From NCBI GenBank assembly GCA_003645115.1, contig QNEG01000001.1:1-29517 (forward strand): DNA of 29,517 nucleotides, read 5' to 3'. The notes beneath the pieces are model-generated. The model was given only the letters and a program-made list of their open reading frames with translations, had not been told where the DNA came from and did not search any database. This DNA is from a bacterium. Its GTDB lineage: Bacteria > UBP14 > UBA6098 > B30-G16. A program made the position numbers and the translations under genes. This document shows, piece by piece, positions 3,326 through 26,323 of the stretch (within the stretch, counting starts at the first letter, position 1; each line of letters starts with the position of its first letter).

Positions 3326-4429
3326 ATGAAAAAGATATATATAATTGTTTTTTTAATTCTGGGAGCAATTTATTCGCAGGAATATGTCTCTCTCAGTAAT
3401 GGTTATGTGGGAATAGTAGTGGATAAATCCACTGGCCAGTTTGCAATCGGAGATATGTCCAGTCGAGGAGTTATCGAGGGTTATCCTAATGACCCCGCAT
3501 ATACACACTTCTGCCTGAAATTTAACGAAAGTTTTTACTGCAACGATACCACTATCGGCGACGAACACTTTATAATCAGAGATTCTGCTCAAGTAGTTGA
3601 AAACACTATCTCTATGGTCTGGAATGTCGGCACCAACCGGGTCTGGGAAAAATTTTACACTCTCGAGGACGACAGCCTGACAGGTTTTATTTATATCGAA
3701 TATGTATTCTACAACGACCATCCATCAGAAAGTGCCATAGTTGGATTTACCGAATATATGGATATTCGTATCGGCGATAATGACGACCCCACAATAGTTC
3801 TTCCCGCACAAATCCTGGAAATCGAGCGAAAATTCGTGGACTTTCAGGTGCCCGCATACTGGACATTTTTTGAGGATTATGAGGACACCAATTCATTTCT
3901 CGGACAAGGTGTCCCATTTGGCAGAGAAGAAATTTATGTCGATGCCGTGATTTTCAGCGATGTGGAGTATATCGATACCATTACCTGGGATTATATGGCA
4001 TTGGCTCGCACTATCGATGACCTGGCTATATTTATGCGATGGAATACGAGAGTGGTAAATCCATACGAATTATATGTAATGGGACATTATTATGGACTGG
4101 GCTATCCCGATGCCAGTATCCAGGAGATGCTGGAAAAATTAGTCCCATCCAAATTTATATTGGGAGCACCATTCCCTAATCCTACTAATGGCGTAACTTC
4201 CATTAAAATCGAGATATTAGACTATAATCAGGATATAGATATAGAAATAATAGATATTCAGGGTCGGCTGGTGGATAAGATATATTCGGGTAGTTTAAAA
4301 CCGGGGACATATTATTATCGATGGGATTTGAAAGACCACACCGGACAGGATGTCCCATCGGGAATTTACTATTTCCGTGTCCATTCTAATCCAGGAGTAA
4401 ATTGCCGCCCTGTGATAATTGTAAGATAA
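3326..4429 (+). CDS. Secreted protein: uncharacterised ~240-aa head domain plus T9SS type A / FlgD-Ig-like C-terminal domain
   Basis: GGGGGA SD; signal peptide; C-terminus 'FILGAPFPNPTN...IEIIDIQGRLV...RWDLKDHTGQDVPSGIYYFRV...VIIVR'. Confidence 0.85.
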   Translation: MKKIYIIVFLILGAIYSQEYVSLSNGYVGIVVDKSTGQFAIGDMSSRGVIEGYPNDPAYTHFCLKFNESFYCNDTTIGDEHFIIRDSAQVVENTISMVWNVGTNRVWEKFYTLEDDSLTGFIYIEYVFYNDHPSESAIVGFTEYMDIRIGDNDDPTIVLPAQILEIERKFVDFQVPAYWTFFEDYEDTNSFLGQGVPFGREEIYVDAVIFSDVEYIDTITWDYMALARTIDDLAIFMRWNTRVVNPYELYVMGHYYGLGYPDASIQEMLEKLVPSKFILGAPFPNPTNGVTSIKIEILDYNQDIDIEIIDIQGRLVDKIYSGSLKPGTYYYRWDLKDHTGQDVPSGIYYFRVHSNPGVNCRPVIIVR

Positions 4430-4468
4430 AACATAACAAACATAGTTTACTTTTAGGGGGTTTGAATT

Positions 4469-7693: not shown

Positions 7694-7895
7694 TTACAAA
7701 ATTGCGGAGAAAATGGGGAAGAATTATTGTTTGGTAAAAATTCAAAGATTGCCTAAACCAGCCTGTTGGTTGAAATCAACTGCAATGAATAAAAAACATC
7801 GAACACACAACATTTTCATTGCCGTCCTGCCGCATTGGCATAGAATAGATGGAAATCCAGATGGATGATTTGCGGGGGAATGTTGTAGGTGCGAC

Positions 7896-7909
7896 CCCGA
7901 CGCATCGGG
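7896..7909. repeat. Small GC-rich palindrome CCCGA-cgca-TCGGG, preceded by GTAGGTGCG (REP-like appearance)
   Basis: Perfect 5-bp stem with a 4-nt loop in an AT-rich intergenic region; GTAG tetranucleotide at 7885. Only one copy in the window. Confidence 0.3.
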
Positions 7910-7976
7910 ATTCCCAGATTTGCCGATTACATCTTGTGGATATAAAACCGCATTTCTTCCTTTTTTTAAAAAATAG

Positions 7977-8005
7977 TTGGAATATTATAAGAGATATGCT
8001 ATATT
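7977..8005 (+). promoter_or_regulatory. Putative sigma70-type promoter for the S8 protease (extended -10)
   Basis: TTGGAA(7977-7982)-N17-TATATT(8000-8005), with TG at 7997-7998; GGGGGA SD just before the ATG at 8051. Confidence 0.45.
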
Positions 8006-8050
8006 TATATAATTTATGATAAAAAACTTACATTAAACTGGGGGGATAAA

Positions 8051-11000
8051 ATGAAAAAACTATTTTTCCTATTATTGCTATTCTCGTTTATCATTACACC
8101 AGTTCCCGCTCGGGATAATAATTTCGAGACTAAATTATCCGAAAGACTATCCCAGAAAATACTTACCCTGAAACCCGAAAATAAAATCGATATATTAGTA
8201 TGGCTTACCGAGCCCGATGGCTGGCGGCAAAGACGAGCAGAACTCGAGCAGATGAGGGGTGAGCGTCGAAGAGAATATGCTGTCCAATCGCTTAAGGAAT
8301 TCTATTTTGCTCACTCCACATCTGTTCTGGAATTGGCTGACAGATTGCAAAAGGAGGATGAATTCGCATTCGGTAAGCATCTCTGGGGTGGGTTCTCATT
8401 TTCGGGAAAGGCAACTATTTATGGTATCTGGGCGATTGCTCAACATCCCGATGTCAAATTAATTATGCTAGATGAACCTTTTCCACGCAGATTTATGCTC
8501 CCTTATGATATTGCCGACCCATTTGAAAAAATTAAAATTAGTCTTACTAACTCCGAATACGCTACCCAGGATTTATGCAGAACCACCACTGCCAACGCCT
8601 GGCAGATTACACATACTAATGTCGATGACGCCTGGTCCACTGGATATACCGGAGAAGGAGTGGTGGTCGCAATTATGGATACCGGAATCGATTACGACCA
8701 TCCGGATTTGACAAACAGGATGTGGACTAATCCAGGTGAGACCCCCGGCAATGGTATCGATGATGATAGCAATGGTTATACCGATGATTACTATGGTTAT
8801 GACTTTTTCGACCACGATTCCGACCCGATGGATAATCCCTCCGATGTGCATCACGGGACAATGTGTGCTGGAATGGCAGTCGGCGATGGAGCCTCGGGAT
8901 GGAACACTGGTGCAGCACCAGGTGCGCGGGTAATGGCTATTCGTGTGGGTAATGGCTCTTCATTCGCAGGCTCTTCCGATGAAATCGATGCATTCCAATA
9001 TGTAGTGGAAAATGGCGCCGATGTCGCCAGTATGAGTTATGGTTCATATCCAAACAATAGCGTGAAGGATTACTATCGATATGTAATAAATGCGATATTT
9101 GGTGCTGCCGGTGTTCCACTGACAGTGGCAGCTGGAAATGGCAATGGCGCCGGTGGACATTATTCACCGCCTTATGATATTTCTACGCCTGCAGATATAC
9201 CACCACCCTGGTATAATGCATCTACATCAGACCCCGCAGGACCAGTGCTGGCGGTAGGCGCTACCAACCTTTCCGATGAAATCGCAGATTTCTCATCATA
9301 TGGTCCCACAGTATGGGATTTCAATAGCAGCTATACATCCGGCTGGCACGATTATCCAGCATCCAGTCCACTTATGAAACCGGATATTTCAGCGCCAGGT
9401 GACAATATAATCACCACTTCCTACGGCGGAGGATATGAATATTCCTGGGGAACTTCATTCTCCTGTCCATTCTTAGCCGGAATCACTGCTCTTTTACTGT
9501 CAAAAAACGGAGAATTGACTCCACGAGAAATTGATTCTGTTCTCGAAGTAACTGCGTTGGATATCTCTGACCCGGGACGAGATAATTACTCTGGCGCTGG
9601 TATGGTAAATGCAGATTCTGCGTTATATCTGGTTTCAGGGAAAGCATTGGCAATCGATTCGGTTAGATTCGATGATAGTGCTACTGGCGATGGTGATAAG
9701 AATCTCGACCCAGGAGAAACTGGCAATGTGATTATTTATGTGCGTAATGCCGGTTCTGCATCCGCTTCAGATGTCCAGGTTACTATGACATCTGTCTCCA
9801 ATCCCGATGTATCCATAGTAGATGCCAATTCCAGTTATGGCACTATGTCGCCCGGAGAGACACGAGATAATTTCTCTGACCCTATTCAACTTTCCATATC
9901 TGCTTCTGCAAATTACACAGAATATTGTATGTGTTATCTGAATATCAGCGATGGCAGTGGATATTCTCGACCGGATTCGTTTGCATTCAGGATAGGGATA
10001 TACCCATTGGAAGCTATGTGGCATGACTCACTGGCTACACTCTATATTAGTATTACCAACTGGGCAGGAATCGCCAATCCCGGTGGGATGGCATGGCCCT
10101 GGCCCTCGGATAGTGCCAATCTTCTATATGGCGCATATCCGATGACCGGTAATAGTTCTGCCTATGTCGCCGATAGCTGGGAGGATTTCTGGCCCCTCGA
10201 TTCTATATGGGAATACGAACCAGGTGGTTTCGCCGATAAGGAAACATACACATCCTGTATCGATACCACAAATGACTATTACATCAAGCAATACACTTAC
10301 CAATGGCGTTCTGCTCCCAATGAGGATTTCATCATCTTTTTCTACAAAGTATATAATCGAACCGCATCCACTTTATCCGGAGTTCGAACCGGTTTCTATG
10401 CCGATTTCGATATCAGCCCATACGACTCCAATTATGCGGTCTGGGATGATGCCAACCAATGGGCTTATATGTATGAATCCACTTCCGGTCCATATTGCGG
10501 AATTGTCTCACTGGATGGATATAATTTAGGCAGTGTGGTGGATAATGTCCAATATGTTTATGAGGATACCGGAATGGGCTGGACAGACGATGTGAAATGG
10601 AGTTTCCTAAATGGCACATATAGTGCTGCCACTGGCGCAACACCCAAGGATTGGTCGGTAATTTTATCTTTCGGTCCGTATAGCATACCATCGGAGGATT
10701 TTATTTCATATTGTGCCGCTATCGTGGCGGGAAATAACCTTACCGATTTCCAAAATAACGCAGACCAGGCAAGGACAATATATTCATCGTATGAATTAAC
10801 AGTCGATGACCAACAGAAAATCCCGGAAGATGTATTCCTGTTCGGTGCACATCCAAATCCATTCAACTATGCCACCGAATTGCGATTTGCACTAACCGAA
10901 CCCGCCAGAGTTAAGCTGGAAATATTCGATTTGCGTGGCAGAAAAATTAAAACTCTGACCGACGAGATGAAACAAAGCAAGTTATATTCTGTTAAATGGT

Positions 11001-11104
11001 ATGGCTGTGATGAAACCGGGATTCCAGTTCCCACCGGTATATATTTTGCAAAGCTTAAGACCGAAAAGACCACTGCGATTCGCAAATTGCTACTCACAAA
11101 ATAA
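8051..11104 (+). CDS. Subtilisin-family (S8) serine protease with propeptide, Ig-like domain, beta-rich accessory domain and T9SS type A / FlgD-Ig-like CTD
   Basis: Signal peptide; catalytic triad D210 (VAIMDTGID), H268 (HGTMCAG), S469 (GTSFSCP); oxyanion AAGNG; Ca-loop NGIDDDSNGYTDDYYGYDF; CTD 'AHPNPFN...EIFDLRGRKIKTL...GIYFAKL...KLLLTK'. Confidence 0.95.
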   Translation: MKKLFFLLLLFSFIITPVPARDNNFETKLSERLSQKILTLKPENKIDILVWLTEPDGWRQRRAELEQMRGERRREYAVQSLKEFYFAHSTSVLELADRLQKEDEFAFGKHLWGGFSFSGKATIYGIWAIAQHPDVKLIMLDEPFPRRFMLPYDIADPFEKIKISLTNSEYATQDLCRTTTANAWQITHTNVDDAWSTGYTGEGVVVAIMDTGIDYDHPDLTNRMWTNPGETPGNGIDDDSNGYTDDYYGYDFFDHDSDPMDNPSDVHHGTMCAGMAVGDGASGWNTGAAPGARVMAIRVGNGSSFAGSSDEIDAFQYVVENGADVASMSYGSYPNNSVKDYYRYVINAIFGAAGVPLTVAAGNGNGAGGHYSPPYDISTPADIPPPWYNASTSDPAGPVLAVGATNLSDEIADFSSYGPTVWDFNSSYTSGWHDYPASSPLMKPDISAPGDNIITTSYGGGYEYSWGTSFSCPFLAGITALLLSKNGELTPREIDSVLEVTALDISDPGRDNYSGAGMVNADSALYLVSGKALAIDSVRFDDSATGDGDKNLDPGETGNVIIYVRNAGSASASDVQVTMTSVSNPDVSIVDANSSYGTMSPGETRDNFSDPIQLSISASANYTEYCMCYLNISDGSGYSRPDSFAFRIGIYPLEAMWHDSLATLYISITNWAGIANPGGMAWPWPSDSANLLYGAYPMTGNSSAYVADSWEDFWPLDSIWEYEPGGFADKETYTSCIDTTNDYYIKQYTYQWRSAPNEDFIIFFYKVYNRTASTLSGVRTGFYADFDISPYDSNYAVWDDANQWAYMYESTSGPYCGIVSLDGYNLGSVVDNVQYVYEDTGMGWTDDVKWSFLNGTYSAATGATPKDWSVILSFGPYSIPSEDFISYCAAIVAGNNLTDFQNNADQARTIYSSYELTVDDQQKIPEDVFLFGAHPNPFNYATELRFALTEPARVKLEIFDLRGRKIKTLTDEMKQSKLYSVKWYGCDETGIPVPTGIYFAKLKTEKTTAIRKLLLTK

Positions 11105-11117
11105 AATAAAAAAAACG

Positions 11118-11143
11118 AGGCGAGTAAATTACTCGCCTTTTTT
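11118..11143 (+). terminator. Rho-independent terminator, possibly bidirectional
   Basis: Stem AGGCGAGTA / TACTCGCCT (9 bp, loop AAT), followed by a T run and preceded by an A run. Confidence 0.9.
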
Positions 11144-11201
11144 ATTTGTTTTCCAACAAATAAAGTTTATCTTTAGTTAATTTAGGAAAGGGATTTCTAT
11201 A

Positions 11202-12011: not shown

Positions 12012-12024
12012 TTTAGCTTTACTC

Positions 12025-12052: not shown

Positions 12053-12099
12053 TATATTGAAAAAGTGTGTTAAATTTGAAAATATAGATGGAGGAAATT

Positions 12100-15000
12100 A
12101 TGAATATTAAGAAGATATTCTGTATTATTTTATTGCTTGGGTTTGCGGGAACTGTATTCGGTGATGGTGGATATGCGAGTTCTGCCGGCACTGGTGAGGA
12201 TTATCGCTCACCCGGTAAAGCCTGCTGGTGGACACAACGAGATGATATCGAGTATCCTGTGAGAATCGAAGTTATGGACTCGTCGGTGGGACTCCTCTCT
12301 AATTTCAGGGGTTCATTTGGAGTGGGTGGAATCGGTCCGTTATATGTTCCACTAGCCAGAAATTTCCATTGGCCTGATAGTTTAGCTGGACAGCATTTTG
12401 TCCTCAATATCGATGGAATTTATTATTCATTCGCTAATTATACCAGCGCACAATTGAATGTGTGTGGCACGCCTCAAACACTCAGGCAAATTGATGACTA
12501 TTTCCAGGGAACCGATACCTCTACTGTGGATGGTCAAGTTCAGATTCGTTCTCATTGGAGAATACCGGTTTTGGATGGCTTTATCGATTTCTATCAATAT
12601 ATTAGACCAGTATTTATGGTATTTGGACCGGATAGTTGTGGAATGGCGAGAATTCATTTCAGAGCGATTAATAACCATTATGAATCTCACTCAGTAGGGA
12701 TTAAGATGATGATGGATGTGTATATAGGAACTGGAACTACTCGTGATAGACCGAAAGTGATGATTGCGGGAAGTTATACCGAATTAAGCCAGACCTATAC
12801 TGCGCCTGTCCCTGCATACTGGCAGGGTGCCGATGAAACATATTATTATCCAGGCATTACTGTTGCCAGAGGAGTCCTGCGTGGTGGTGATGCTACTCCA
12901 CCAGATTATTTTATTATCGGAGACCAAATGGGACTATGGCGTCATATCTGGGTGCGAACTGATTGTGAACCCGATTCTACTTGGTGGATGGAAACATTCC
13001 CCGGATTTGCCACTGGCGATGCCGCATTTCTCATTCAGTGGAATCCATATTCCATTCCAGCTGGTGGAAATTTCAACTGGATAACCTATTACGGTTTCGG
13101 TTCGTTCTATGTTCCGCCGAGTGAAATCGAGGTTTCACTTATACTCCCAGACATTAGTTGTCATGATTGTATGTTGGATACTTTGGTGGAAGCCAGCACT
13201 ATCATCGCACAACACGATGATTTAGGCGCAACTTACTATAATGATACTATTTGCCTATATCCACCATCGCCACTGGAAATCGACTCGGTCTATTGGGATA
13301 CCACTATCGTAGGAGGAGAGATACTCAGTGACAATTGTGTCCTTTTCGACAGTCTTCCACCGGATGTAAATGTAAGCATTGGGTGGTGGATATATGTCCC
13401 CCCAGATCTTCATTTAACTGGACTTACCGGTGAAATAGAATACTATGCTAATTCCGGTGATGTAACTACCGCCACAGATTCTTTTGAAACTATTACTGTC
13501 CCTATGTTTTCAGGTATCGGTCCAACTATGGAATTGTTAAATGATACTCTAATGTATTTCAGTTGCACTACATTTACTGTGGATATAAGATATACCGAAG
13601 ATGATTTAGGAATCGACCAGAGTTCGGTTCTTCCCAGTGTGAATGGATATTCCAGCGATGATTTCTTGATATGGGATACACCAATCGACCCGATGTTGGA
13701 TACTTTCCATATATTTGTTCCCGGAACATTGTTCACTGTGGATAGTGTGGGTTCTGCATTAGTAGTAATCCCACCTATAGCAGATGCCTGTGGCTGTCTA
13801 TCTCCGGATACACTTCGAACATTGATATACTGGGATGACCAACCACCAGTGCTGACCGATATGTCACCACCCGATAGTGGATATGTGAATACTCCTAATC
13901 CGGATATTAGTTTTACTATTTGCGATTCCGTATCCGGAATCCAAATAGACAGTATAGATTTTTATTATTCCTATGGTTCCGATATTATCGAGCTTACATC
14001 CAGAGATTTCGGCATAGTCCGCATTCCCAATTCTGATACTTCCTGTGTGGAAATATCTTTCACTCCCACAGACATTCCCAGCGAGACCACTGTCACTGTA
14101 TGTGTGACTCGAGCATTAGATTTTATCGACCCGCCTTGTTCACCCAATGTGATGGATACCATTTGTTGGTCATTCCTGGTGGATTATACCGGTCCGAGAG
14201 TGGAATTTATCGAACCACCAGATACTGTTGCCTATGTCAGTTGTGATACTCCCGAAGTTTGCTTTGTGGTGGAAGATATGAATGGCTTACTCACCGAACC
14301 TTGTGAAAGTTTGGAAGTGTGGATTGGAAGCACTGTATATGATGCCTGTGACCCAAATATGTCCATAAGCGGAGATACAGTATGTATTCTGGATGTATAT
14401 AATTCTCCATATAGTAGTGGCGCTACTGTGGATATCACCATAATGCATCTTTCTGATACCCTGGGCAATTCAGCCGACGCAGTAGGATATTCGTTCGAAA
14501 TGGATACCGAAGGACCCTGGGTATCTGTCGTTGACCCACTGGAATGGTCATTTGTCAATATTCCATCGCCATCCAGTCCGGTCTGTTCTATCCTGGTTAA
14601 TGATGACCTATCGGGTATTGGACTGGATTATGTTACTATAAGAATGTCTATCAATGACGGAGAGGATACAGTTCTCACCTATCCGGAAGATATGGTTTTT
14701 ACCTCCGGATGGCTTAGTATATTTACCGACCTATCCGATGCCGATTATTTGGATACGGTATGTTTCACTCTGGACACTATATTCGATAATGCCCAGGTAT
14801 GTCCGCCCAATATTATCGACCCGCCATTCGAATGGTGCTATGTTATAGATAATCAACCGCCCGAGGCTGAACTGGTTCAACCCGAGGAGGGAGCTGTCTG
14901 GGCTTGCGATGTCACCGAGGGATGGATTTGTATCGATTTTATCGATGTTACCGATGTGGAAAGTGGCAGTATCGTGGTCACTGTTGGAAATTCATCACCA

Positions 15001-18000
15001 GTATCCACAGGGTGGATATATTATTCCGATGTTAATCGCTATTGCGGACCGATACCTGTGGATGCCGAAATCACCTCCTGCGAACCTATACCTATAATAA
15101 TTATGCAGGTCGCTGACACACTGGGCAATGTGGCTTCATATTCCGATACATTCTATATAGTCTCCGACCTCGAACCACCTTATGTCGGCTTAATGTATCC
15201 CGATGACACTACTTTAGCTTATGATTCAATCGCAATAGAAATAATCGATGATTGCTCGCCGATTATCCAAAGTCAAACTTGTTTCGATATATTGGTGCGA
15301 AATATGGGCACCGATGTGGTAAATCTGGAAGTATGTGGAGATAACTCCGATATAAACTGGCATCCTGGACCGTATTCATCCACAGATACTGCATTCTTCT
15401 TTGTGAATTCCATCTTAGATTCTGTGGGAATGGCACTCAGCAACGGCGACAGCATTTACATTTGCGTGACACAATCCTCGGATACTTTGGATGATAATTC
15501 CTGTGGATACAACCAATTTACCGATACCACCTGTCTCGATTTCTTCTACAGTCTGGGTGGACCATCTATTTCCATAGTGGAACCGCCCAGTGGTTCTGCG
15601 ATTTCCTGCGAAAGTCTGTGTGTTACTTTCGCCACTCAGGATAGTGATGGTGTAGATTCCTCCACTGTATATTTGTCCTATCAAATCAATAGCGGACCAG
15701 TCCAGATTGCCACTATAGAATCCTCGTTTGTAACCTGGGTTCCGGGAACTCCAACATCCGCTCCAGATAATATTATTATCTGTATCCCCGATATGTTGAT
15801 GGATGGCGATGAGATATTCATTTCGGTGGATTCATTAGACGATATGTTAGGTGTTCCAACCACTACCGGGCGAAGTGGCACTTATTGGATAGATTGGGAA
15901 CCGCCGAATATCAGCAACTATTGGCCCTCCGATGGCGAGGAAATCGAAACCGCTCAACCATTGATTTGGGTGACTGCTAATGACCTAATCGCTGGAATCA
16001 ATCAGGAAACTGCCTGTTTTACATTCAATTCTACCGTTACTTATTGCTGGGACGATTCTATAGTATATTGGTCTGGTGATGGCGATACTGTATATTTTAG
16101 TTCGGTAGAAGCAGGTGAATTTTTCTCCGGCGGAGATACTATCCAGGTATGTCTCGAACTCGCTGATAATGCCATTTTGTGCGATTCCAATTACACCGAG
16201 TATTGCTGGGAATTCTCTATCGCCGCAGGTGGACCTCTCGCCGATGCTGTAGAACCGACGGAAAGTTCCATCGTCACCTGTGATACTATCTATTCTTTGA
16301 TTATAACAGCTTATGATACCAATGGAGTCGATTGGAATACATTTCATATTATTATCGATGGACCGGGCTCTTTCTATTATGATATCAGTTATCCCGACCC
16401 TGCTTTAACTTTAGCCAATGACACTTTAACAGCGGATGCTATAATCGCCGAGGAGGGAACAGTATGGGTCACCATAGAGGTTCAGGATAGTCTGGGCAAT
16501 GATATTTCTGGTGGAAGTTATGAATACTGGTTCGTAATCGACCATTCTGCTCCGGTAATAGTGGAATATATTCCATTGTGCGATTCCACTGCTATCGATA
16601 TTCCGGAAACTTTATGGGTTATTGCTGAAGACCCATTCGGATATCCCGACCCCGACCTGTTCTGTGTGGGGATAATAGATACCGCCGGTGATACCATTCG
16701 AATATGTGGCGATGAAACCGGTGCGATAGGCAGCAATCTCGATACTATTTTTGTTATACTCGATTCACTCGATTTGGATTTCCACGGTGGCGATACTATA
16801 GTTTGGTGGATAGAGCAACTCGCCGATTATTCCGATATGTGCACTCCGAATTTTGGGCTAACCGGTGATACTTGCACGATTCCAATTTCCGCTACCGGTC
16901 CAGCGGTAGAATTGATAGAACCGATAGATATAAACGGTGATGGATACATATATTTCGGCTGTGAATACCCATATATTTTCCAATTCACTCTGGATGACCC
17001 GGAAGGATACGATACTTCCTCCATTTGCATATACTATTTCTGTATCGATAGTGCTACTGGCGACACCATATCCCGCGAGAATGAATGTTGGCCCGACCCG
17101 GACTTATCCTTATCGGGTGATACATTACTCTGGGATGTGCTTACATTCCCCTGCCCGGAGGGAAATGAATTACACATCACTGTGGAAGTAATGGATAATT
17201 TGATGAATCCACAACGACCAAATAATTTCATAGTAATTATAGATACTTCGGCGCCGGGATTCGAAATAATATCTCCTGCGCCAGAAGAAAGTGTATTGAC
17301 ATTGACACCGGTTATTACACTCGGTTTTCCCGACCCTGCGGGACCGGACACCAATCTGATATGTGTAGAACTTCAATGGGGTGGCTCTACACTTGAGGTA
17401 TGCAATTCCGGCGACACTATAACCTGGTCGTATGATACTCTATTCCTGCACACTCCACCGGGACTTTTCAGCACCGGCGATACTGTAACCATTTGCGTAG
17501 ATAGCGTTTGGGATGCCGCCGATGCCTGCCCAAATTCTGCATTATTGGACACCTGTTATTGGGTATTTATTGCACAGGGCGGTCCGGAAGTTATTATAAC
17601 ATATCCAATCCCTGATTCGGTGGGATTGATTTGTGCCAATGATACATTTATATTCGTATTCTCCGACCCCAATGGATTGGATACCACCACTGTGCATTTT
17701 GCCGATGATGGCACCGAATATCCAATCGGGTCCAATCCATACTGGGCTGATGAAACCACTCTGGTTTATGTTCCATCGTCGCCATATAGCTGGTCGCCGG
17801 TGGAAATTTCCATCTGGGGACACCAGGATATGCTGGGATACGAATCCGATTCGATTGTATTCACATTGGATATGGATGTCCAACCGCCTACTGCTACCTG
17901 GGTTAGTCCCGGTTCGCCACCAGAACCGATTACTATTCCACCTGGAACACCCATAATTCAGATAGAAATTACTGATTCCCTTAATCTGGTGGATAGCACC

Positions 18001-21000
18001 ACTATATTGCTCTGCACTCACGGACTGGATGAATATTGCTATCCTGTGGATGCAGAAGTAGGTATCGATGATACATTGACCTGGGATTGGTTCGAGGGAA
18101 TGCTTACTTATTTTGCAGAATTTTCCAACGATACATTCCTGGCGGGAGATTATGATTCCGTTTGCCTGATTGTCGGCGATGACCCGAACTGTGGTGATTA
18201 TTACAATCTGGATACTATTTGCTGGAGTTATAATGTGTCTGCTGCTGAGGGACCGACACCGACATTGATTATTCCGACTCCGGATAGTGCTACTATCGCC
18301 TGCACAGATTCTTTCTTTATCGCATGGAGTTGTATTACCTCGATAGGACTTCGACATTCCAATGCGGAAATATCTATGCAAATCGGTTCCGATGTTCCGG
18401 TGACTTATGATGACGCCTCGGGAAGAATTTCATATAGTGGTGATACATTATTCTTCAGTCCCGATATGTCGGAACCATTTTCCGATGGCGATACGCTAAC
18501 TATACAAATCCTTCATATCGAGGATGCGCTGGGCAATCCTACCGAGGACCCAGAAACATATACTTACACTTTCTTTATCGATTGGTCGGGACCAGCACTG
18601 ATAGATGCATCACCGGTAGGATTGAGTCTCGACCCATCTCCAACTATATGGTTTTATTTTGAGGATATCAGCGAAATCGACACTATGTCATCGGTGGTGA
18701 CTATCACTGTAGCTGGTGAAACACCTACCACTTATCGAATCACCGATACAGAAATGTTCTGGAATATGGATACGCTATTCATCGATGGGTTGTCATTCGC
18801 AGGTGGAGATTCGGTTATTGTTTGCCTGGACTCCATAGCCGATATTCCCGACACCTGCGGACCGAACTGGACTACCGATACTTGTTTCACATTCTGGCTC
18901 CCACAGGGTGGACCTCTCGCCGAACTGGTTATTCCGATAGATAGCACTACTACTTTCTGCGAGGACCAAAACATAGTTATAGCGTTATGTGATAGTCAGG
19001 GAATATTACTGGACAGTCTGAGATTCTATATCCAGCACAGGGTTAGCGGAGTTACCGACTCATTCGATGCCGACCATATCACAAATCTGGGAATGATAGA
19101 CCATATTTTAGATACATCTGGCACTACTTTCTGTGATACTATTATTGTTCCGCCATTATCATCGTTTGCCGATGGAGAAACGGTTATAGTTACTCTGGAA
19201 AGAGCTATGGATACATTATTCAATCCATCATTCCCATACCAGTGGATGTTCGTGGTAGATTTATCTCCACCCATTGCGGACAATTATGTTCCCGCAATGA
19301 ATGAAACTGTTTATAACTGGAGTCAGCATATTTCCGTTCAAGTCTGGGATGTATTCAGTTGGCTGGATACTATCGCATTGGCGGTGGAAATACTGGACAA
19401 TGGTTCGCTATGGTTCACATTCCGATGGGATTCCACTCAACTCTGGTATGATAATTCCGATTCTACTGTTCATATTCAAATCGATACATTATGGCAAGAA
19501 TTCCACCAATATTGCATAAATATATTCGCACAAGATACCACAGACACCGTGCTATGTCCTGCTAATGATACCGTGTTCTCCTGGTGTTTCTATGTGGGCG
19601 ATGATGATTCTATCGCTCCAGAAATTACTCTGGAGGATTCCTGTTTCTGGCCCGGAATGGTCACAGATTTCTACATCGCTTGCACATTGAGTGATTCATC
19701 TGGAATATACGACGATGCTACCGATACCGCAGGTCAGGGTATTTTCGTGGTATATGATACTACCAATTGTCCCGAAATGGAAACTGGCGACTTTCTGGGT
19801 ATCGAACAGATGGTTTATACTCCGGTCGATTCATACTGGGGAACAGCTATTACTCCCACTGGTGCATTCCCGCAATTCCCGCCGGGGACTCATTTGTATT
19901 ATATAATTTATGCTTACGATAACGATTTCGATTTCGAGAACGAATTGGATAGAGCACAGGCATATTCAGTTTGTGGGACTTGTTATTTCCACGATATCGA
20001 CCCGCCTACTATCTGGGCGATAGACCCCGATAGCGGTTATTTCTATTCCTGCACCTGCGGAACCCAGGAACTGCTGATTGGAATGCACGATTATGATGGC
20101 GTGAGTATCGATGCAGGAACTCTCGCAGTAAATAGTATCTCATATCCGCTGGACACCACCATTTCACCACAAATATCATTTTCCGGCAATGTGGGAATGC
20201 CAGGAACTGTATATGTCCATTTCACTCCCCAGGAATGCTGGGAACACTATGACACTATATCTGTGGATATCTGGGGCTGGCAAGATATATATGAAAATCT
20301 GTATGAAGATTCAATTTATCATTACGACTTTGTGGTAGATTGGGAACCGCCCGAGGTATATTATGAAAATTGCGCTGGCGAGGGTGATACTAATCTGTAT
20401 CTGGAGGAATTCGACACCATCGTGATTCAAATTACCGACCAACCAGCTGGTGTAGAACCAGACAGTATCCAGATAGTGATAAATGGTAAGCATATAAGTA
20501 ATGGTTCATATCCCTCGAGCTATGATTATACTCATATATACACTATCGCCGATAATGGAGTGGAATACGATTCCGCATCTGGCGAACTCGAATTGATTAT
20601 CCCTCGTCTGCCCTATCTTGAAATCGAGAATATGGATTCACTGTGGATAGTGGTTGGACAAGTTTGCGATATATCGCAATCCTGCGGACCGAATTGTGTC
20701 AGCGATGCTATGACCTGCCCGAGATATATAGTAGCAGAATTCGAATGTCGGACACATCCTAATCCATTCACACCTAACAATGATGGTTCTAATGATGAAT
20801 TATTCATCCAGTTCCCCAAGATGGTATTCCGTGATGCCACTGTTTATATATATGATATGGCGGGAATAGAAATTAAGAAAATCACAGTCGGTGATGCTCA
20901 TACTTATGTCTGGGATGGCACCGATAGTCAGGGCAATGATTGCAGACCGGGTGTATATTTGTATGTTATCAAAGTCGATGGCGAGGTTATTTGCACCGGT

Positions 21001-21021
21001 TCGTTTGTGCTGGCGAGATAA
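12100..21021 (+). CDS. Giant secreted repeat protein (about 2973 aa): head domain, linker domain, ten A/B pairs of Ig-like repeats plus one odd module, T9SS type B (gliding-motility-associated/CHU_C-like) CTD; putative stalked adhesin
   Basis: GGAGG at 12090-12094 favours ATG 12100 over 12088; signal peptide MNIKKIFCIILLLGFAGTVFG; recurring GP/DxxPP module starts; C-terminus 'PNPFTPNNDGSNDEL...IYDMAG...WDGTD...GVYLYVI...VLAR'. Confidence 0.9.
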   Translation: MNIKKIFCIILLLGFAGTVFGDGGYASSAGTGEDYRSPGKACWWTQRDDIEYPVRIEVMDSSVGLLSNFRGSFGVGGIGPLYVPLARNFHWPDSLAGQHFVLNIDGIYYSFANYTSAQLNVCGTPQTLRQIDDYFQGTDTSTVDGQVQIRSHWRIPVLDGFIDFYQYIRPVFMVFGPDSCGMARIHFRAINNHYESHSVGIKMMMDVYIGTGTTRDRPKVMIAGSYTELSQTYTAPVPAYWQGADETYYYPGITVARGVLRGGDATPPDYFIIGDQMGLWRHIWVRTDCEPDSTWWMETFPGFATGDAAFLIQWNPYSIPAGGNFNWITYYGFGSFYVPPSEIEVSLILPDISCHDCMLDTLVEASTIIAQHDDLGATYYNDTICLYPPSPLEIDSVYWDTTIVGGEILSDNCVLFDSLPPDVNVSIGWWIYVPPDLHLTGLTGEIEYYANSGDVTTATDSFETITVPMFSGIGPTMELLNDTLMYFSCTTFTVDIRYTEDDLGIDQSSVLPSVNGYSSDDFLIWDTPIDPMLDTFHIFVPGTLFTVDSVGSALVVIPPIADACGCLSPDTLRTLIYWDDQPPVLTDMSPPDSGYVNTPNPDISFTICDSVSGIQIDSIDFYYSYGSDIIELTSRDFGIVRIPNSDTSCVEISFTPTDIPSETTVTVCVTRALDFIDPPCSPNVMDTICWSFLVDYTGPRVEFIEPPDTVAYVSCDTPEVCFVVEDMNGLLTEPCESLEVWIGSTVYDACDPNMSISGDTVCILDVYNSPYSSGATVDITIMHLSDTLGNSADAVGYSFEMDTEGPWVSVVDPLEWSFVNIPSPSSPVCSILVNDDLSGIGLDYVTIRMSINDGEDTVLTYPEDMVFTSGWLSIFTDLSDADYLDTVCFTLDTIFDNAQVCPPNIIDPPFEWCYVIDNQPPEAELVQPEEGAVWACDVTEGWICIDFIDVTDVESGSIVVTVGNSSPVSTGWIYYSDVNRYCGPIPVDAEITSCEPIPIIIMQVADTLGNVASYSDTFYIVSDLEPPYVGLMYPDDTTLAYDSIAIEIIDDCSPIIQSQTCFDILVRNMGTDVVNLEVCGDNSDINWHPGPYSSTDTAFFFVNSILDSVGMALSNGDSIYICVTQSSDTLDDNSCGYNQFTDTTCLDFFYSLGGPSISIVEPPSGSAISCESLCVTFATQDSDGVDSSTVYLSYQINSGPVQIATIESSFVTWVPGTPTSAPDNIIICIPDMLMDGDEIFISVDSLDDMLGVPTTTGRSGTYWIDWEPPNISNYWPSDGEEIETAQPLIWVTANDLIAGINQETACFTFNSTVTYCWDDSIVYWSGDGDTVYFSSVEAGEFFSGGDTIQVCLELADNAILCDSNYTEYCWEFSIAAGGPLADAVEPTESSIVTCDTIYSLIITAYDTNGVDWNTFHIIIDGPGSFYYDISYPDPALTLANDTLTADAIIAEEGTVWVTIEVQDSLGNDISGGSYEYWFVIDHSAPVIVEYIPLCDSTAIDIPETLWVIAEDPFGYPDPDLFCVGIIDTAGDTIRICGDETGAIGSNLDTIFVILDSLDLDFHGGDTIVWWIEQLADYSDMCTPNFGLTGDTCTIPISATGPAVELIEPIDINGDGYIYFGCEYPYIFQFTLDDPEGYDTSSICIYYFCIDSATGDTISRENECWPDPDLSLSGDTLLWDVLTFPCPEGNELHITVEVMDNLMNPQRPNNFIVIIDTSAPGFEIISPAPEESVLTLTPVITLGFPDPAGPDTNLICVELQWGGSTLEVCNSGDTITWSYDTLFLHTPPGLFSTGDTVTICVDSVWDAADACPNSALLDTCYWVFIAQGGPEVIITYPIPDSVGLICANDTFIFVFSDPNGLDTTTVHFADDGTEYPIGSNPYWADETTLVYVPSSPYSWSPVEISIWGHQDMLGYESDSIVFTLDMDVQPPTATWVSPGSPPEPITIPPGTPIIQIEITDSLNLVDSTTILLCTHGLDEYCYPVDAEVGIDDTLTWDWFEGMLTYFAEFSNDTFLAGDYDSVCLIVGDDPNCGDYYNLDTICWSYNVSAAEGPTPTLIIPTPDSATIACTDSFFIAWSCITSIGLRHSNAEISMQIGSDVPVTYDDASGRISYSGDTLFFSPDMSEPFSDGDTLTIQILHIEDALGNPTEDPETYTYTFFIDWSGPALIDASPVGLSLDPSPTIWFYFEDISEIDTMSSVVTITVAGETPTTYRITDTEMFWNMDTLFIDGLSFAGGDSVIVCLDSIADIPDTCGPNWTTDTCFTFWLPQGGPLAELVIPIDSTTTFCEDQNIVIALCDSQGILLDSLRFYIQHRVSGVTDSFDADHITNLGMIDHILDTSGTTFCDTIIVPPLSSFADGETVIVTLERAMDTLFNPSFPYQWMFVVDLSPPIADNYVPAMNETVYNWSQHISVQVWDVFSWLDTIALAVEILDNGSLWFTFRWDSTQLWYDNSDSTVHIQIDTLWQEFHQYCINIFAQDTTDTVLCPANDTVFSWCFYVGDDDSIAPEITLEDSCFWPGMVTDFYIACTLSDSSGIYDDATDTAGQGIFVVYDTTNCPEMETGDFLGIEQMVYTPVDSYWGTAITPTGAFPQFPPGTHLYYIIYAYDNDFDFENELDRAQAYSVCGTCYFHDIDPPTIWAIDPDSGYFYSCTCGTQELLIGMHDYDGVSIDAGTLAVNSISYPLDTTISPQISFSGNVGMPGTVYVHFTPQECWEHYDTISVDIWGWQDIYENLYEDSIYHYDFVVDWEPPEVYYENCAGEGDTNLYLEEFDTIVIQITDQPAGVEPDSIQIVINGKHISNGSYPSSYDYTHIYTIADNGVEYDSASGELELIIPRLPYLEIENMDSLWIVVGQVCDISQSCGPNCVSDAMTCPRYIVAEFECRTHPNPFTPNNDGSNDELFIQFPKMVFRDATVYIYDMAGIEIKKITVGDAHTYVWDGTDSQGNDCRPGVYLYVIKVDGEVICTGSFVLAR
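13519..20718 (+). repeat. Array of 10 alternating A/B Ig-like protein repeat pairs (about 100-130 aa per module), with one non-repeat module at about 19597-19992
   Basis: A modules start (G/P)P...xC and end with a DxLGN-like motif; B modules start DxxPP/AP/GP, contain DxxSG(I/V), and end C-x-PN...D-x-C-W-x-F. Seen only at protein level. Confidence 0.8.
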
Positions 21022-21053
21022 TAATAAATTTGGTTAGCAATAAACTAAATTGA

Positions 21054-21506
21054 ATGTGGAAAAGGAATATATACATATTTATTATTGCCATTGGAATCTG
21101 GATATGGATTTATGGCTGTTCGACACAGGATAACAATGATGAAAATGGTAGTCAGATTCCATCACCGGAATTGATAAATTTTTCTGTGAGCGAGAATTGC
21201 AGCGAATGGAATGCCACACAGATAAATGTGGATGAGTGTAATATTTCGATAGAACATTATGCTATGTTCGGTGCATCGGCAGATTCTATTGTGGTAAATT
21301 TTGAGGTATCTGCGGAAACGCTTAAGATTATTGAAAAAGGATACCAGAGTTCTTTCGATGATAGTATATGCTATTTTTGCGTTTCTGCCGATATTTTAGT
21401 ATATATGACCGGAACATATTATTTGAAAATATTTCGGCAGATAAATGAAGGAGTGCAATCATTGGAATGGTCGGGCAATGTAAATATTACCAGTTGTGGA
21501 GAATAA
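21054..21506 (+). CDS. Small lipoprotein of unknown function
   Basis: Basic N-region, hydrophobic stretch, lipobox IYG-C22, polar linker STQDNNDENGSQ, beta-rich remainder. No obvious SD. Confidence 0.75.
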   Translation: MWKRNIYIFIIAIGIWIWIYGCSTQDNNDENGSQIPSPELINFSVSENCSEWNATQINVDECNISIEHYAMFGASADSIVVNFEVSAETLKIIEKGYQSSFDDSICYFCVSADILVYMTGTYYLKIFRQINEGVQSLEWSGNVNITSCGE

Positions 21507-24500
21507 ACAGGAGGATTATTATTACTAATATATCGGGAATAAAACAAATACTCGTATTACTTCTGATTGTCCTATTCGGTTTTATATACGGTCAGGAAGT
21601 AGAATTAGATAAGGAATCCATATACGGTGCAGGTTCTGCGAAATCATCCATTCTGCTACGAACTGAAAATGATAGCGTGGGCGCAGTGGTCAGAAGTTCG
21701 GGAATATTCTCTATCGGCACTACTGGTGGAAGACCATTGCTGTTCGGTTATCCCTATACAGCTCAAACTTCTCATACTCATTTCTATGTGGATGGAGAAG
21801 TTAAGGGGAATTATCTGGATACCCTGGTCGGACACCCATTACCAGCCGAAATTATCACCGCACCGCATCTGGTGGACAGCACAATCATTTGTTCGTGGAA
21901 TGTAGCGGGAGTAGAATTCACTCAAACTATACTCCCAGTGTATGTGGGCGCCGACCCGCAAATTAAAATCCAATATGATATATCCAATACCGACCATATC
22001 ACTCATTCCGCAGGATTACTGCTATTTCTGGACACTATGATAGATTCGAACGATTGCGCACCGATTGCTACGCCACTGGGCTATTTCGAGACTGAACAGG
22101 AATTTATCGATGATATTCCATCGTTCTGGCAGGCATTCGAACAAAATCCATTCCAGCCCCCAGAGAGATTGGTCGGACAGGGAATATTAATCGGTTTCGA
22201 GGCTACTCCACCTGATATATTGGTATATGGAGACTTTTGGAATTATCGCACTACACGATGGGACTATACTTTCGCTGGTGGATTATATAGCGATAGTGCT
22301 GTCCTTTTGCGATGGAATCCGGTCCCATTGCCGCCGGGAACATCCAAAACTATCATCACATATTACGGTATCGGTGTGGCAGATAGAACGATAGGAGAAA
22401 TCTCTATGTCGATGACATACCCGGAAGAGATATTGCCCGAAGGTTGTAATGGTTTCAATCCCGATACTTTTGTGGTCACTTTGTTAATATCTGCCGAGGA
22501 TACTGTGGGTGGTGCAATAGCCACATTGAACACTCCCGATTTCCTGAGATTATTGGATGAGGAAACACTATCTATTCTACCCACTATATTGATGCCTGGA
22601 GATATGGGTTCGGCATCCTGGCAGGTAGCAGTGGAACCATCCGCTATCACACAAATCGGAACACTATTTGTGGAATTATCCTCGCCGGGATATTCTCCAA
22701 CCACTATGCGACGAGAAATTAGATTATTCGCTCCCGATGGTGAACCACCTATTATTTCATTGATATCTACTATTCCATCTCCTGTGGTGCGCGATACTTT
22801 AACTGTGCGATTTGATGTTTCAGATGACAGCGAAGTCGATTTTTCATCCACCACGATTACTTTGGATGGCGAGGAAATTCCAGCAGAAATAGCAGGAACG
22901 AATATAATTATATCTCTATCGGATTTAAGCGAAGGCATCCACCAGTTGATTGTCGATAACATATCCGATATCTACGGTTGTGAAAGTGAACCCTACGAAA
23001 TTTCATTGGATGTAGAATTGCCACCAGCACCGGAACTCACCATTTTATCACCCGAACCGGGAACATTTTCCAGCTGTGAAGAAGATACTATCGCCATTCA
23101 TTTCAATTCCTCTGCCCCATTGTCTATGGAGTTATCGCACCTTACTATCGATGGTGAGGAGATTCCGTTTGCCATTCGAGCAGATACTATATTTACTTTT
23201 GCCACTTCGCTATCCGAGGGAACTCATTCTATCCATTTTTTAGCCACAGATGAATTCGGTCTCTCCAACGAATTAGAATGGCAATATACTATCGATAGAA
23301 CTTCACCTCGACTCGAACCATTTACAGAAATATATACATTGAGTTCGCCTTATGACCCATTGCAATATTTACTCGATGATGCTATCTCAGGAGTGGATGA
23401 ATCATCCATAACAATCCGGTGTGCTCTCGATGAGGATACATTTACATTCATTCCCGATTCACCGGGAATAACTTTCTCCTCTGGCAATCTAACTATAATT
23501 CCTGGTGAAACCGAACTGGAATTTACCGGATGCTCACATTTCTCACTATGGATAATTGTAGGAGATAATATCCAGAGTTGCGGACCGAACATATTGGACA
23601 CACTGGCGTATTCTATGTCCATTCCGTGCACTCCGCCGGATATTATATTGCTCGAACCGGAGGGTGTTTCCGCCTGCGATACAGTGAAAGTGATTATGCT
23701 GATGCAAGACGATGAAGAAATAATCGCAGATTCTGCCTGGGTAGAATTCGAAGGACATCGTTATGACTTGAGTTCACATAATTTAATTCTTTCCAGCGAC
23801 ACTTTGATATTCAAATTGCCATCGACTCACATTCCCGATGGAGATGTATCTATTAGAATAGGCGGTATCGAGGATAGCTGGGGAAATGAAATCAGCGCTG
23901 GCACCAGTATTTCCGTGACTATCGATCGGACAGCGCCAGAAATATTGGGAATTTATCCCGAAATTGAGCTAACCGGGACGGAAACAGTGCGATTCCGATG
24001 TTTCGATGAGGTCAGTGGAATATCCGCAGAACAAAGTTATATCGTGTGCAATGATGACACTATGTCCATCGGTTATGGAATGGGTTTCGATGGCGAAAAT
24101 CTATTCGTTCCCTCTGCATTCTGGCTTTCCGCACTGGTTAGTGATACACTCGGTGTATGCGCTCATATTTTTGACAATGTCTCTGACTGTGAACCCAATT
24201 ATACCGATACCTGTGTGGAATTTATAGTCGAACAAAGTGGTCCAGCATCGGTTATTATTGCTCCACCGACCGATGTTTATTTGGGATGTGATACACATCG
24301 AGTGAAATTGCTCTGGTTCGACCCCGATGGAGTGGATAGAGCAAGTTCATCGATTAGTATAAATGGAGTTTCCAATTCTGCCAGCAGTCCGATGTTCCAC
24401 TGGACTGCGGATACGGTCGATTTCGATATCGCCACTATCGATGAAGATATAATCGAAATTATACTAACCGGATACGATGAATTGGGATTCTCATCGGTGG

Positions 24501-26323
24501 ATACTTTTATTCTTCGCATAGATAAAAATCCACCGGAAATTTTATCTATAAATCCATTACCCGATGACGAATTATATCAGATAACGAATAGCTGGAAAAT
24601 AGTGCTCGAGGACAATCTTTCTGGAATAGATTGGCGAAGTCTATCTTTTCTGGTGAATGGAAACTTGTTCACTATCGCCGACGAGGCTCTTAATGTTCGA
24701 GCAGATACACTGATTTTTAATCCCGGAATGGCAGGAATCACTTATTATAACGATACTATTCGATGTGCGATTTATACCTCCGATAAATCATTTCATTGTG
24801 CAAACACGCTGGATACAATGTGGACATATACCTTGTTTACTCCCGATTTCTGGTGGGAATTAATAAAGCCTCAGGGAGTATCCGCCTGTGAAACAGTGGA
24901 GGTTCAAGTGGTATTTCATACAAATTTCGATATAGATTTTGATTCGCTTTTCACCGCTATCAGCAACAATTCATTCAATCATTCTCATCGAGGAGATACA
25001 TTGAATATCGATATTCCCGCCAGTTTCCTGATTTCTGGGGTAAATACACTAACCGTATGGAATATCACCGATGAGGAGCACATAGTTTCACTGCCGGAAA
25101 GTATATTTGTCCCCATTTTGTATGATGGATTGCCACCGAGGATATTACCGATATATCCTGCGCCGGGACAGCAAATCAGCTCCGAGAGTTCAGTAATCGC
25201 TCTGGTGGAGGACAATTACACTGGAGTGGATAGGTCTGGTGTAATAATCGAGTTCGATGGTGCGTCATACTTTCCTGACTCTATAAACTGGCAGGGCGAT
25301 ACATTGATTTTTCCGTTGCCCGAACAATTATTGGGAGATGTGCAAATATGTATCACCGCATCGGATATGCCGGATAATTGCGAACCGAGGAATACTCGTA
25401 TTTGCTGGGAATTCACTATCCCAGGTGCCGGTCCAGATATTTCTATTATTCGACCTTATAACTACCAATATACACATAATCCCAGGCAGGATATATTATT
25501 CCAAGTGAATTCAGAAAACCAAATCGACTGGAATACATTGACTATTACAATCGACCAAATCATATATACTCATAATTTAGATTATATAACTATTTCAGGG
25601 GATACAGTTCGTTTCGCACCGAGTCAAAATTGGTCCGATGGAGATACAGTTCGATTTTCCATCGCTATCAGTGATGATATCGGGCTTTCCTCAGCAATTA
25701 GTTCGCAATTTATATGCGATTATTCTGCTCCAGTCTGTTCCGAACCATATCCACAGGGAATCGTTCAAAATATCCCCGACAATATTTCTGTCCGAATCAC
25801 CGATGAAGGTGTTGGTGTTGACCCATTTTCTATCGTATTTCAGATTGAGGATTTATTCATTCCTTACGATAATTATTCATTAACATATGACCACCAAATT
25901 GCCACTTTGGATTTAAATTCGGCTGGAATTCATCTATCCCCACAAGTCGGGATGGACACAGTAAATGTATGCGTGCTGGCAACAGATTTGAATACTAATC
26001 TGGGAATTCCAAATGTGATGGAAAATTATTGTTTCTGGTTCCTGCCTGTTAAGGGCGGATGTTCGGTAAATCCGAAAACTTTCACTCCTAATAACGATGG
26101 TTTCAATGATATAGTGACATTTGAGGTATATTCTGACTATGAGATTTTAGTTAAATTATTTACTTTGGAAGGTGCATTGGTGAATAAATTATATGGAAAC
26201 TACACCATTACCTGGGATGGAACAGATAACAACGGTAAACCAGCACCACCGGGTCCATATATTTATACTGTGGAATCACGGGGGAAAAATTTATGCAAAG
26301 GCACTATTATTATTGCCAGATAG
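21467..26323 (+). CDS. Second large secreted repeat protein (about 1600 aa), paralog of 12100..21021: head domain, linker, one extra module, five A/B pairs, T9SS type B CTD. True start may be ATT at 21521
   Basis: Signal peptide KQILVLLLIVLFGFIYG/QE; same head-domain motifs and repeats as the 2973-aa protein; C-terminus 'NPKTFTPNNDGFNDIV...WDGTDNNGKPAPPGPYIYTV...IIAR'. Confidence 0.88.
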   Translation: MVGQCKYYQLWRINRRIIITNISGIKQILVLLLIVLFGFIYGQEVELDKESIYGAGSAKSSILLRTENDSVGAVVRSSGIFSIGTTGGRPLLFGYPYTAQTSHTHFYVDGEVKGNYLDTLVGHPLPAEIITAPHLVDSTIICSWNVAGVEFTQTILPVYVGADPQIKIQYDISNTDHITHSAGLLLFLDTMIDSNDCAPIATPLGYFETEQEFIDDIPSFWQAFEQNPFQPPERLVGQGILIGFEATPPDILVYGDFWNYRTTRWDYTFAGGLYSDSAVLLRWNPVPLPPGTSKTIITYYGIGVADRTIGEISMSMTYPEEILPEGCNGFNPDTFVVTLLISAEDTVGGAIATLNTPDFLRLLDEETLSILPTILMPGDMGSASWQVAVEPSAITQIGTLFVELSSPGYSPTTMRREIRLFAPDGEPPIISLISTIPSPVVRDTLTVRFDVSDDSEVDFSSTTITLDGEEIPAEIAGTNIIISLSDLSEGIHQLIVDNISDIYGCESEPYEISLDVELPPAPELTILSPEPGTFSSCEEDTIAIHFNSSAPLSMELSHLTIDGEEIPFAIRADTIFTFATSLSEGTHSIHFLATDEFGLSNELEWQYTIDRTSPRLEPFTEIYTLSSPYDPLQYLLDDAISGVDESSITIRCALDEDTFTFIPDSPGITFSSGNLTIIPGETELEFTGCSHFSLWIIVGDNIQSCGPNILDTLAYSMSIPCTPPDIILLEPEGVSACDTVKVIMLMQDDEEIIADSAWVEFEGHRYDLSSHNLILSSDTLIFKLPSTHIPDGDVSIRIGGIEDSWGNEISAGTSISVTIDRTAPEILGIYPEIELTGTETVRFRCFDEVSGISAEQSYIVCNDDTMSIGYGMGFDGENLFVPSAFWLSALVSDTLGVCAHIFDNVSDCEPNYTDTCVEFIVEQSGPASVIIAPPTDVYLGCDTHRVKLLWFDPDGVDRASSSISINGVSNSASSPMFHWTADTVDFDIATIDEDIIEIILTGYDELGFSSVDTFILRIDKNPPEILSINPLPDDELYQITNSWKIVLEDNLSGIDWRSLSFLVNGNLFTIADEALNVRADTLIFNPGMAGITYYNDTIRCAIYTSDKSFHCANTLDTMWTYTLFTPDFWWELIKPQGVSACETVEVQVVFHTNFDIDFDSLFTAISNNSFNHSHRGDTLNIDIPASFLISGVNTLTVWNITDEEHIVSLPESIFVPILYDGLPPRILPIYPAPGQQISSESSVIALVEDNYTGVDRSGVIIEFDGASYFPDSINWQGDTLIFPLPEQLLGDVQICITASDMPDNCEPRNTRICWEFTIPGAGPDISIIRPYNYQYTHNPRQDILFQVNSENQIDWNTLTITIDQIIYTHNLDYITISGDTVRFAPSQNWSDGDTVRFSIAISDDIGLSSAISSQFICDYSAPVCSEPYPQGIVQNIPDNISVRITDEGVGVDPFSIVFQIEDLFIPYDNYSLTYDHQIATLDLNSAGIHLSPQVGMDTVNVCVLATDLNTNLGIPNVMENYCFWFLPVKGGCSVNPKTFTPNNDGFNDIVTFEVYSDYEILVKLFTLEGALVNKLYGNYTITWDGTDNNGKPAPPGPYIYTVESRGKNLCKGTIIIAR
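22736..26042 (+). repeat. Array of 11 Ig-like protein modules (one extra plus 5 A/B pairs)
   Basis: B modules IDRTSP, IDRTAP, IDKNPP, YDGLPP and CDYSAP, each with D-x-x-(S/T/V)G(I/V), alternate with A modules ending in DEFG, DSWGN, DELG, DEE or DDIG. Confidence 0.8.

Follow-up and report, generated by a model that had tools for sequence, protein, structure and literature searches.

Why should three genes that lie close together in one bacterium begin with the same kind of secreted domain, carry it on stalks of such different lengths, and end in two different sorting signals? The question is raised by contig QNEG01000001.1 (GenBank assembly GCA_003645115.1) of an uncultured sediment bacterium of the phylum UBP14, whose genome comprises 2.15 Mb in 401 contigs and is 60% complete. 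The window, i.e. the whole stretch of 29,517 nucleotides (nt) that was analysed, holds ten long open reading frames (ORFs), all co-directional; every window gene located below is on the + strand. Three of them encode the proteins in question: H367 (3326..4429; 367 amino acids, aa), the giant H2977 (12088..21021; 2977 aa as the longest ORF) and H1618 (21467..26323; 1618 aa), each of which opens with a hydrophobic signal sequence followed by the domain, here called the head. An earlier note on this DNA took them for adhesin or sensor tips shown at three graded heights, with stalk length acting as a ruler. Our analysis suggests that the three genes belong to a large family of paralogs, spread across the phylum, that encode type IX secretion system (T9SS) cargo built from a head, a neck, a stalk and a sorting domain.

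The same domain does begin all three proteins. BLASTP aligns the heads of H367 and H1618 at 1e-25 (29% identity over 265 aa), those of H2977 and H1618 at 3e-22 and those of H367 and H2977 at 1e-5. A profile of 13 head sequences places the domain at nt 3374-4141 (4e-128), 21647-22414 (3e-84) and 12256-13131 (1e-73), within a few codons of the bounds first proposed (3386-4102, ~21650-22375 and ~12280-13101). The head is about 250 aa long and ends at aa ~272 in H367. The motifs quoted in the earlier note are all present, and they coincide with the positions kept in 70-98% of 169 family members (in H367 numbering, G37-x-F39-x-x-G42, N130, G140, D146, P176, G195, D232-x-A234, W239 and Y255-Y256-G257-x-G259); residues conserved family-wide also include N152, D153, E167, D206 and W221. 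The mutual identity of the three heads is only 24-29%, which marks them as ancient paralogs that probably do not make up one and 'the same' tip.

No family could be named for the head from the letters alone, and none is found by searching: Pfam (E<=1), NCBIfam (E<=0.1) and a PDB sequence profile (E<=10) all return no match. The fold can be assigned from a model. The AlphaFold2 prediction of the head, made with 13 homologs, is all-beta, with a pLDDT (predicted local distance difference test score) of 89.8 and a pTM (predicted template modelling score) of 0.88. Foldseek relates it to PDB entries of the GH94-like domain of cyclic glucan synthase, GH94 phosphorylases, YidC P1 and mutarotase-like proteins, with E-values of 3e-9 to 1e-5. 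VIA-align, which is independent of Foldseek, gives Z-scores of 13-17.5 to more than 50 supersandwich chains, including GH94 N-terminal domains, mutarotases and amine oxidase D4, at 5-13% identity and with none standing out; mutarotase and mutarotase-like structures score 13.6-16.3. The predicted fold is thus a galactose-mutarotase-like beta-supersandwich, one of the outcomes that the earlier note had proposed to check for.

The match to the GH94 N-terminal domain (PF06165), aldose 1-epimerases, YidC P1 and copper amine oxidase D4 (TM-scores of 0.5-0.7) spans essentially the whole 255-residue model. The head nevertheless differs from these domains in its low identity, in lacking an HMM (hidden Markov model) match or a conserved His pair, and in being a free N-terminal module of secreted surface proteins rather than part of an enzyme: Pfam gives no match to PF06165 at E<=1, and the domains downstream of the head are Ig (immunoglobulin)-like or C-terminal sorting domains (CTDs), not GH94 catalytic ones. 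Among clusters of the AlphaFold database the head resembles unnamed domains fused to VWA, HYR, DUF11 and CBM3 (TM-scores of 0.77-0.84). A structural match in the ESM Atlas reaches a TM-score of 0.89 (the scores of the feature search are all below 0.9), and fusions with cohesin and with NEW3/CARDB are also seen among the structural matches in these two collections.

An exhaustive HMM search extends the family to 1,749 clusters (representatives at 50% identity) at E<=1e-3, and to 1,053 at E<=1e-10. The head is N-terminal in 150 out of 170 sampled members (88%). Fusion partners in 40 representatives are CHU_C (12), FlgD_ig (11), Por_Secre_tail (7), OmpA (7) and CARDB (5). Members labelled at NCBI come from Candidatus Delongbacteria, Gemmatimonadota and Cytophagales. 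The T9SS ones are named solely by their CTD, and the Cytophagales member is a thioredoxin-head protein, labelled thioredoxin family protein, in which no CTD was detected. No supersandwich head on T9SS cargo turned up in a search of the literature.

The window's own genome encodes at least 13 head-bearing ORFs of 333-3151 aa, the head always being N-terminal, and each of 26 out of 26 genomes of the phylum carries 3-16 copies in recurring size classes. Paralogs of 367, 442, 708, 1188 and 1285 aa end in a type A or FlgD_ig-like CTD (some of these matches are below the Pfam cut-off), and those of 1033, 1618, 2272, 2977 and 3151 aa in a type B CTD. The counts of stalk units among the genome's paralogs are 0, 0, 1, 1, 4, 4, ~9, 12+, 13 and 19. 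Of the proposal of three graded heights, then, the display of one head on different stalk lengths and through two signals stands, and the number three does not, since there are at least 13 paralogs with 0 to ~19 units.

H367 is the stalkless form: its N-terminal Sec signal peptide, read by eye from the sequence, is MKKIYIIVFLILGAIYSQ, and its type A CTD (aa 283-361) directly follows the head, as had been noticed. In H2977 the signal peptide and head are followed by a neck (aa 349-579), an Ig-like stalk (aa 580-2874) and a type B CTD (aa 2891-2977). In H1618 a signal peptide and head lead into a CARDB/NEW3-like neck and pre-stalk (aa 317-608), an Ig-like stalk of two alternating unit types, A and B (aa 609-1508), and a type B CTD (aa 1536-1618). 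The true start of the giant is probably ATG 12100 and not 12088, giving 2973 aa: a GGAGGA Shine-Dalgarno sequence lies 7 nt before it, and the database copy begins there also. The start of H1618 is ambiguous, being either ATG 21467, which overlaps an upstream 150-aa ORF, or an ATT ~6 nt after AGGAGG near 21521.

Beyond the CTD, a Pfam scan of H2977 and H1618 (E<=0.01) gives only weak bacterial Ig-like domains. As self-BLAST found no repeats in the stalks, we built HMMs for the A and B units from motif-defined segments of the giant. The units, of ~100-120 aa, are diverged; the A type ends in D...C-x-P-N...D-T-C and the B type in D-x-L-G-N. The giant's stalk reads ABABABABABABABABABA, i.e. 19 alternating units, plus an unassigned segment of ~137 aa at aa 2495-2631, and that of H1618 reads BABABA(weak B)ABA. 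The 10 and 5 pairs counted earlier are thus approximately right (about 9.5-10 and 4.5-5.5 by HMM) without being exact. An AlphaFold2 model of one A-B pair (pLDDT 90.4, pTM 0.74) consists of two beta-sandwiches, whose structural neighbours are tandem Ig/Fn3 modules, e.g. titin Z1Z2 and the Fn3-like modules of CbhA.

The assignment of a type A signal to the short protein and type B signals to the two long ones holds by curated models: the CTD of H367 matches PF18962 (28.8 bits, cut-off 27) and TIGR04183 (27.8 bits, cut-off 23), and those of H2977 and H1618 match PF13585 (41.5 and 33 bits, cut-off 27). The genome also has genes for the corresponding machinery, with matches to PorU (460 bits, cut-off 420), SprA_N (108 bits) and PorV (95 bits for a PorV-like protein, below cut-off); at least 45 of its ORFs score against the part of the PorU model that covers the CTD. 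In characterized systems, type A CTDs use PorV and linkage to anionic lipopolysaccharide (A-LPS), and cargo with a type B CTD binds its cognate PorP/SprF-like protein; PorE adds peptidoglycan binding (PMC9143113, PMC12618676).

A putative anchor or shuttle for the type B cargo lies 33 nt downstream of H1618 (26357..29278). This 973-aa protein, with 972-aa orthologs in the loci L023 and L024 of relatives, combines a PorV/PorP-SprF-like barrel (aa 26-316), a CARDB domain (325-415) and two OmpA-like domains (478-593 and 851-895). Its matches to NF033709 (PorV/PorQ; 46 bits) and TIGR03519 (PorP family; 28.5 bits) are both below cut-off. A second anchor-like gene overlaps its stop by 4 nt and is present by its start only (29275..29517), as the contig ends there; relatives have a 926-aa OmpA protein at this place. 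The window thus has two type B cargo genes followed by two consecutive anchor-like genes. The arrangement of a PorP-like gene after type B cargo recurs in relatives and on contig C14 of the same genome, where a 965-aa PorP-like frame (5158-5892) comes just after a head-bearing type B ORF (6138-9236). Fused PorP-like frames of ~900-1000 aa number 2-8 per genome in 26/26 genomes of the phylum, and each type B gene appears to be matched by a fused PorP-OmpA anchor.

The closest relatives of a head are not always found on the same scaffold. Between the giant's head and that of the stalkless 442-aa protein on contig C74 the identity is 66% (E 4e-166), the first ~170 residues being noticeably more alike; it is only 43-48% between the giant's head and the heads of the 2940- and 2944-aa giants in other assemblies, which are presumed orthologs (synteny for giants of these sizes is seen in relatives L023 and L025). 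The type A CTD match of the 442-aa protein is 22.7 bits, below the Pfam cut-off, and two further proteins, of 800 and 1125 aa, whose type A CTD matches are weak and below cut-off, also carry the giant's head subtype. In another example, the head of the 3151-aa paralog is 67% identical to that of a 961-aa protein with a different C-terminal module. By these similarities, one head at two heights and with two sorting signals is a true description, but for other pairs than those first compared.

The homology of the heads, their fold, the architecture of the proteins, the expansion of paralogs, the conserved lengths, the exchange of heads and the T9SS setting are established. On this basis we put roughly 60% on the following reading, which draws on sequences, models and analogy: the proteins form a T9SS cargo family in which a distal N-terminal head binds a ligand, likely a glycan. 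Short and mid-size members would be sorted by a type A CTD and long members by type B. By comparison with anchoring in Bacteroidota, type A cargo would either be joined to anionic LPS through its new C-terminus or be set free, and type B cargo would be held by its PorP-like barrel. Since both anchoring routes hold the C-terminus, that end would be cell-proximal and the head distal, at heights of roughly 0, 40-50 and 80-95 nm if each Ig-like domain adds ~4-4.5 nm. Duplication or conversion would have moved head subtypes between scaffolds, so that one subtype may be displayed on a type A protein close to the membrane and also on a long type B fibre. For the ligand, we infer a glycan from the supersandwich fold and the fusion partners only.

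Several observations weigh against this reading. In TIGR04131 the CTDs of H2977 and H1618 score 32 and 31.7 bits, just below the 35-bit cut-off, and the TIGR03519 score of the 973-aa ORF is likewise below its curated cut-off. GldL (TIGR03513) and GldM (PF12081, TIGR03517) have no match in 26/26 genomes; control genomes were equally silent and gave no valid match, so these negatives are not evidence of absence, and may reflect divergence. Some relatives consist of a signal peptide and head-head-OmpA, or of thioredoxin...head-OmpA (OmpA-type relatives from other metagenomes are P0063, P0080, P0082, P0090, P0112, P0113 and P0137). The OmpA-fused forms are probably periplasmic or peptidoglycan-associated, and the head is therefore not intrinsically or exclusively a distal surface tip. 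The conserved polar and aromatic positions of the head could equally form a Ca2+ site or a structural core. Finally, release instead of anchoring is common for type A cargo, which makes 'height zero' for H367 an assumption.

The idea that stalk length is a functional ruler, setting adhesin or sensor heads at discrete distances so as to clear a surface coat or sample layers, survives best among the alternatives; a ruler role is plausible, though we consider it doubtful as the explanation of the locus. The size classes hold throughout the phylum, with 363-417 aa for the short open frames, ~1593-1624 or ~1742-1801 aa for the medium ones and ~2712-3011 aa for the giants, and head clades track them. 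When repeat numbers were compared at homologous loci, as the earlier note had proposed, length proved conserved: orthologous stalks are nearly gap-free at 44-50% identity, and the A/B matches number 18-19 in each of the giants of 2940, 2944 and 2977 aa. The H1618 ortholog, for example, is collinear at 52% identity (its head is the best-conserved part, at 70%), with 4 gapped residues in 900 of stalk at 50% identity, and the giant and its ortholog have 46 gapped residues in 1915. Within each orthologous group, the number of stalk domains is fixed. However, the repeats are too diverged to recombine, as the empty self-BLAST indicates, and a fixed length may therefore come from missing slippage together with ordinary constraint at the domain level; the head region is just as gap-poor as the stalk. 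The medium class, moreover, is not uniform: its A/B matches number ~9 in the family to which this genome belongs and ~12 in the phylum's other families, a difference of about one pair, so the 5:10 ratio in the window, already suspected of being chance, is not fixed. In the wider family, protein lengths range continuously between ~330 and 3151 aa, and no sensor or signalling module is present.

It is rather unlikely that the stalks position an enzyme and not an adhesin, the head being catalytic and active on glycans (epimerase-, lyase- or hydrolase-like). Its fold neighbours are mostly parts of carbohydrate-active enzymes, including stand-alone mutarotases and the GH174 fucanase, and acidic and aromatic residues are strongly conserved between subfamilies of only 20-30% identity. 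But aldose 1-epimerases use two His and a Glu, and by sequence the head has neither a conserved His/His/Glu set nor a Pfam or NCBIfam match to that family; no His at all is among the positions conserved in >=70% of 169 members. In most of the neighbours (GH94, GH15, GH36, GH97) the supersandwich domain is non-catalytic, and the 5-13% identity is much the same to every neighbour.

We hold it similarly improbable that the head is a structural or assembly module, whether as an N-terminal cap nucleating the folding of the exported chain or as a homotypic contact by which fibres of different length are held together in a surface coat. Its almost invariably N-terminal position, the same core residues in all subtypes, its occurrence in tandem and with OmpA in the probable periplasmic proteins, and the many paralogs per genome would fit. 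The many old subtypes (20-37% identity), on the other hand, are more easily explained by different ligands, and fusions to CBM3, VWA, cohesin and NEW3 suggest binding of substrates or partners. There is also a slim chance that the paralogs make up a length-graded capture system, in which polymeric or particulate substrate caught far out would be passed inward to copies close to the cell and to neighbouring enzymes of T9SS type, among them the S8 protease next door, the number of stalk domains being selected as a spacer and one head subtype standing both on a long PorP-anchored fibre and, via a type A CTD, on the outer membrane (the giant versus the 442-aa protein).

The neighbouring genes follow an order found in relatives: a small membrane protein, the short head protein, an S8 peptidase, MurI, the giant, the medium protein and two OmpA proteins of ~930-970 aa. 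Directly upstream of H367 is a 228-aa membrane protein (2621..3307) with a weak match to DUF5683; relatives have a 197-246-aa gene at this position, the match being positional only. The S8 subtilase (8051..11104) bears a type A CTD and no head; in relatives, too, it is found beside the short head protein. Its C-terminal region was considered as a fourth head for its 'GFYADFDI'-like motifs and rejected, the head HMM having no match there at E<=1e-3. A 1074-aa gene (4469-7693) lies between the short head protein and the S8 peptidase, which adjoin in relatives L025 and L026; by gene order it would be an insertion, or a loss, relative to the conserved arrangement. Between the giant and medium genes is the 150-aa ORF (21054-21506), with no family match. 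In relative L023 (9475-9916; 15263-15914), a 78-aa ORF and a HicA toxin gene lie between giant and medium, and a HicB-like gene follows the medium protein.

Two window ORFs, at 1-2610 (869 aa) and 4469-7693, have in common a C-terminal module of ~515 aa (58% identity) without a CTD match. The 961-aa head ORF mentioned above (contig C178, 2-2884) ends, by eye, in a similar C-terminal 'platform', a possible third type of C-terminal module joined to the head. In the 3151-aa paralog (contig C27, 231-9683), which has a type B CTD, the head occurs together with at least 12 A/B units, an InhA-like MAM domain and a CHU_C-associated Ig_7 domain.

Parts of this design are known from other systems. Like SprB-SprF of F. 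johnsoniae and PG1035-PorP-PorE of P. gingivalis (PMC9143113, PMC12618676), the locus has large, repeat-rich cargo with a CHU_C-type CTD and, directly downstream, a gene for a putative PorP/SprF-like barrel, and like PorE it has an associated peptidoglycan-binding OmpA-like module. It differs from both in that barrel and OmpA modules are fused in one protein of ~970 aa, in that the host lies outside Bacteroidota, in a small phylum, and GldL/GldM were not detected (nor were they in the controls), and in the supersandwich head and A/B Ig-like stalk of the cargo. The gingipains of P. gingivalis, which are type A cargo, resemble H367 and the paralogs of 442, 708, 1188 and 1285 aa in their signal peptide and C-terminal type A or FlgD_ig-like CTD, and a gene for the PorU sortase is present here too; the functional domain here is an unnamed supersandwich.

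NCBIfam 'choice-of-anchor' families follow a logic like that seen here, one N-terminal extracellular domain with alternative C-terminal sorting signals, and none of their models matches any of the three proteins, head included, at E<=0.1. Reach also matters in long adhesins with Ig repeats such as Salmonella SiiE, and in YadA, whose length is related to the injectisome needle. There, as here, tandem Ig-like domains form a rod that keeps the terminal binding region at a distance from the outer membrane, but through type I and type V secretion systems rather than T9SS, whereas here a graded set of paralogs has one common head family.

The head is a large new domain family, while the design of head, Ig stalk and CTD with shuffling of modules is already familiar. 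Defined here by 1,749 clusters and nameless in Pfam and NCBIfam, the family begins T9SS cargo in this phylum and in members from Candidatus Delongbacteria and Gemmatimonadota, and with a family model many proteins now annotated as 'T9SS sorting domain-containing protein' would gain an architecture that can be recognised. Because one head subtype occurs both on a stalkless type A protein and on a type B fibre of ~3000 aa, with the type B genes apparently matched by anchors, the locus offers a natural test bed for how final placement is decided by the two sorting routes of the T9SS, and for any effect of fibre length.

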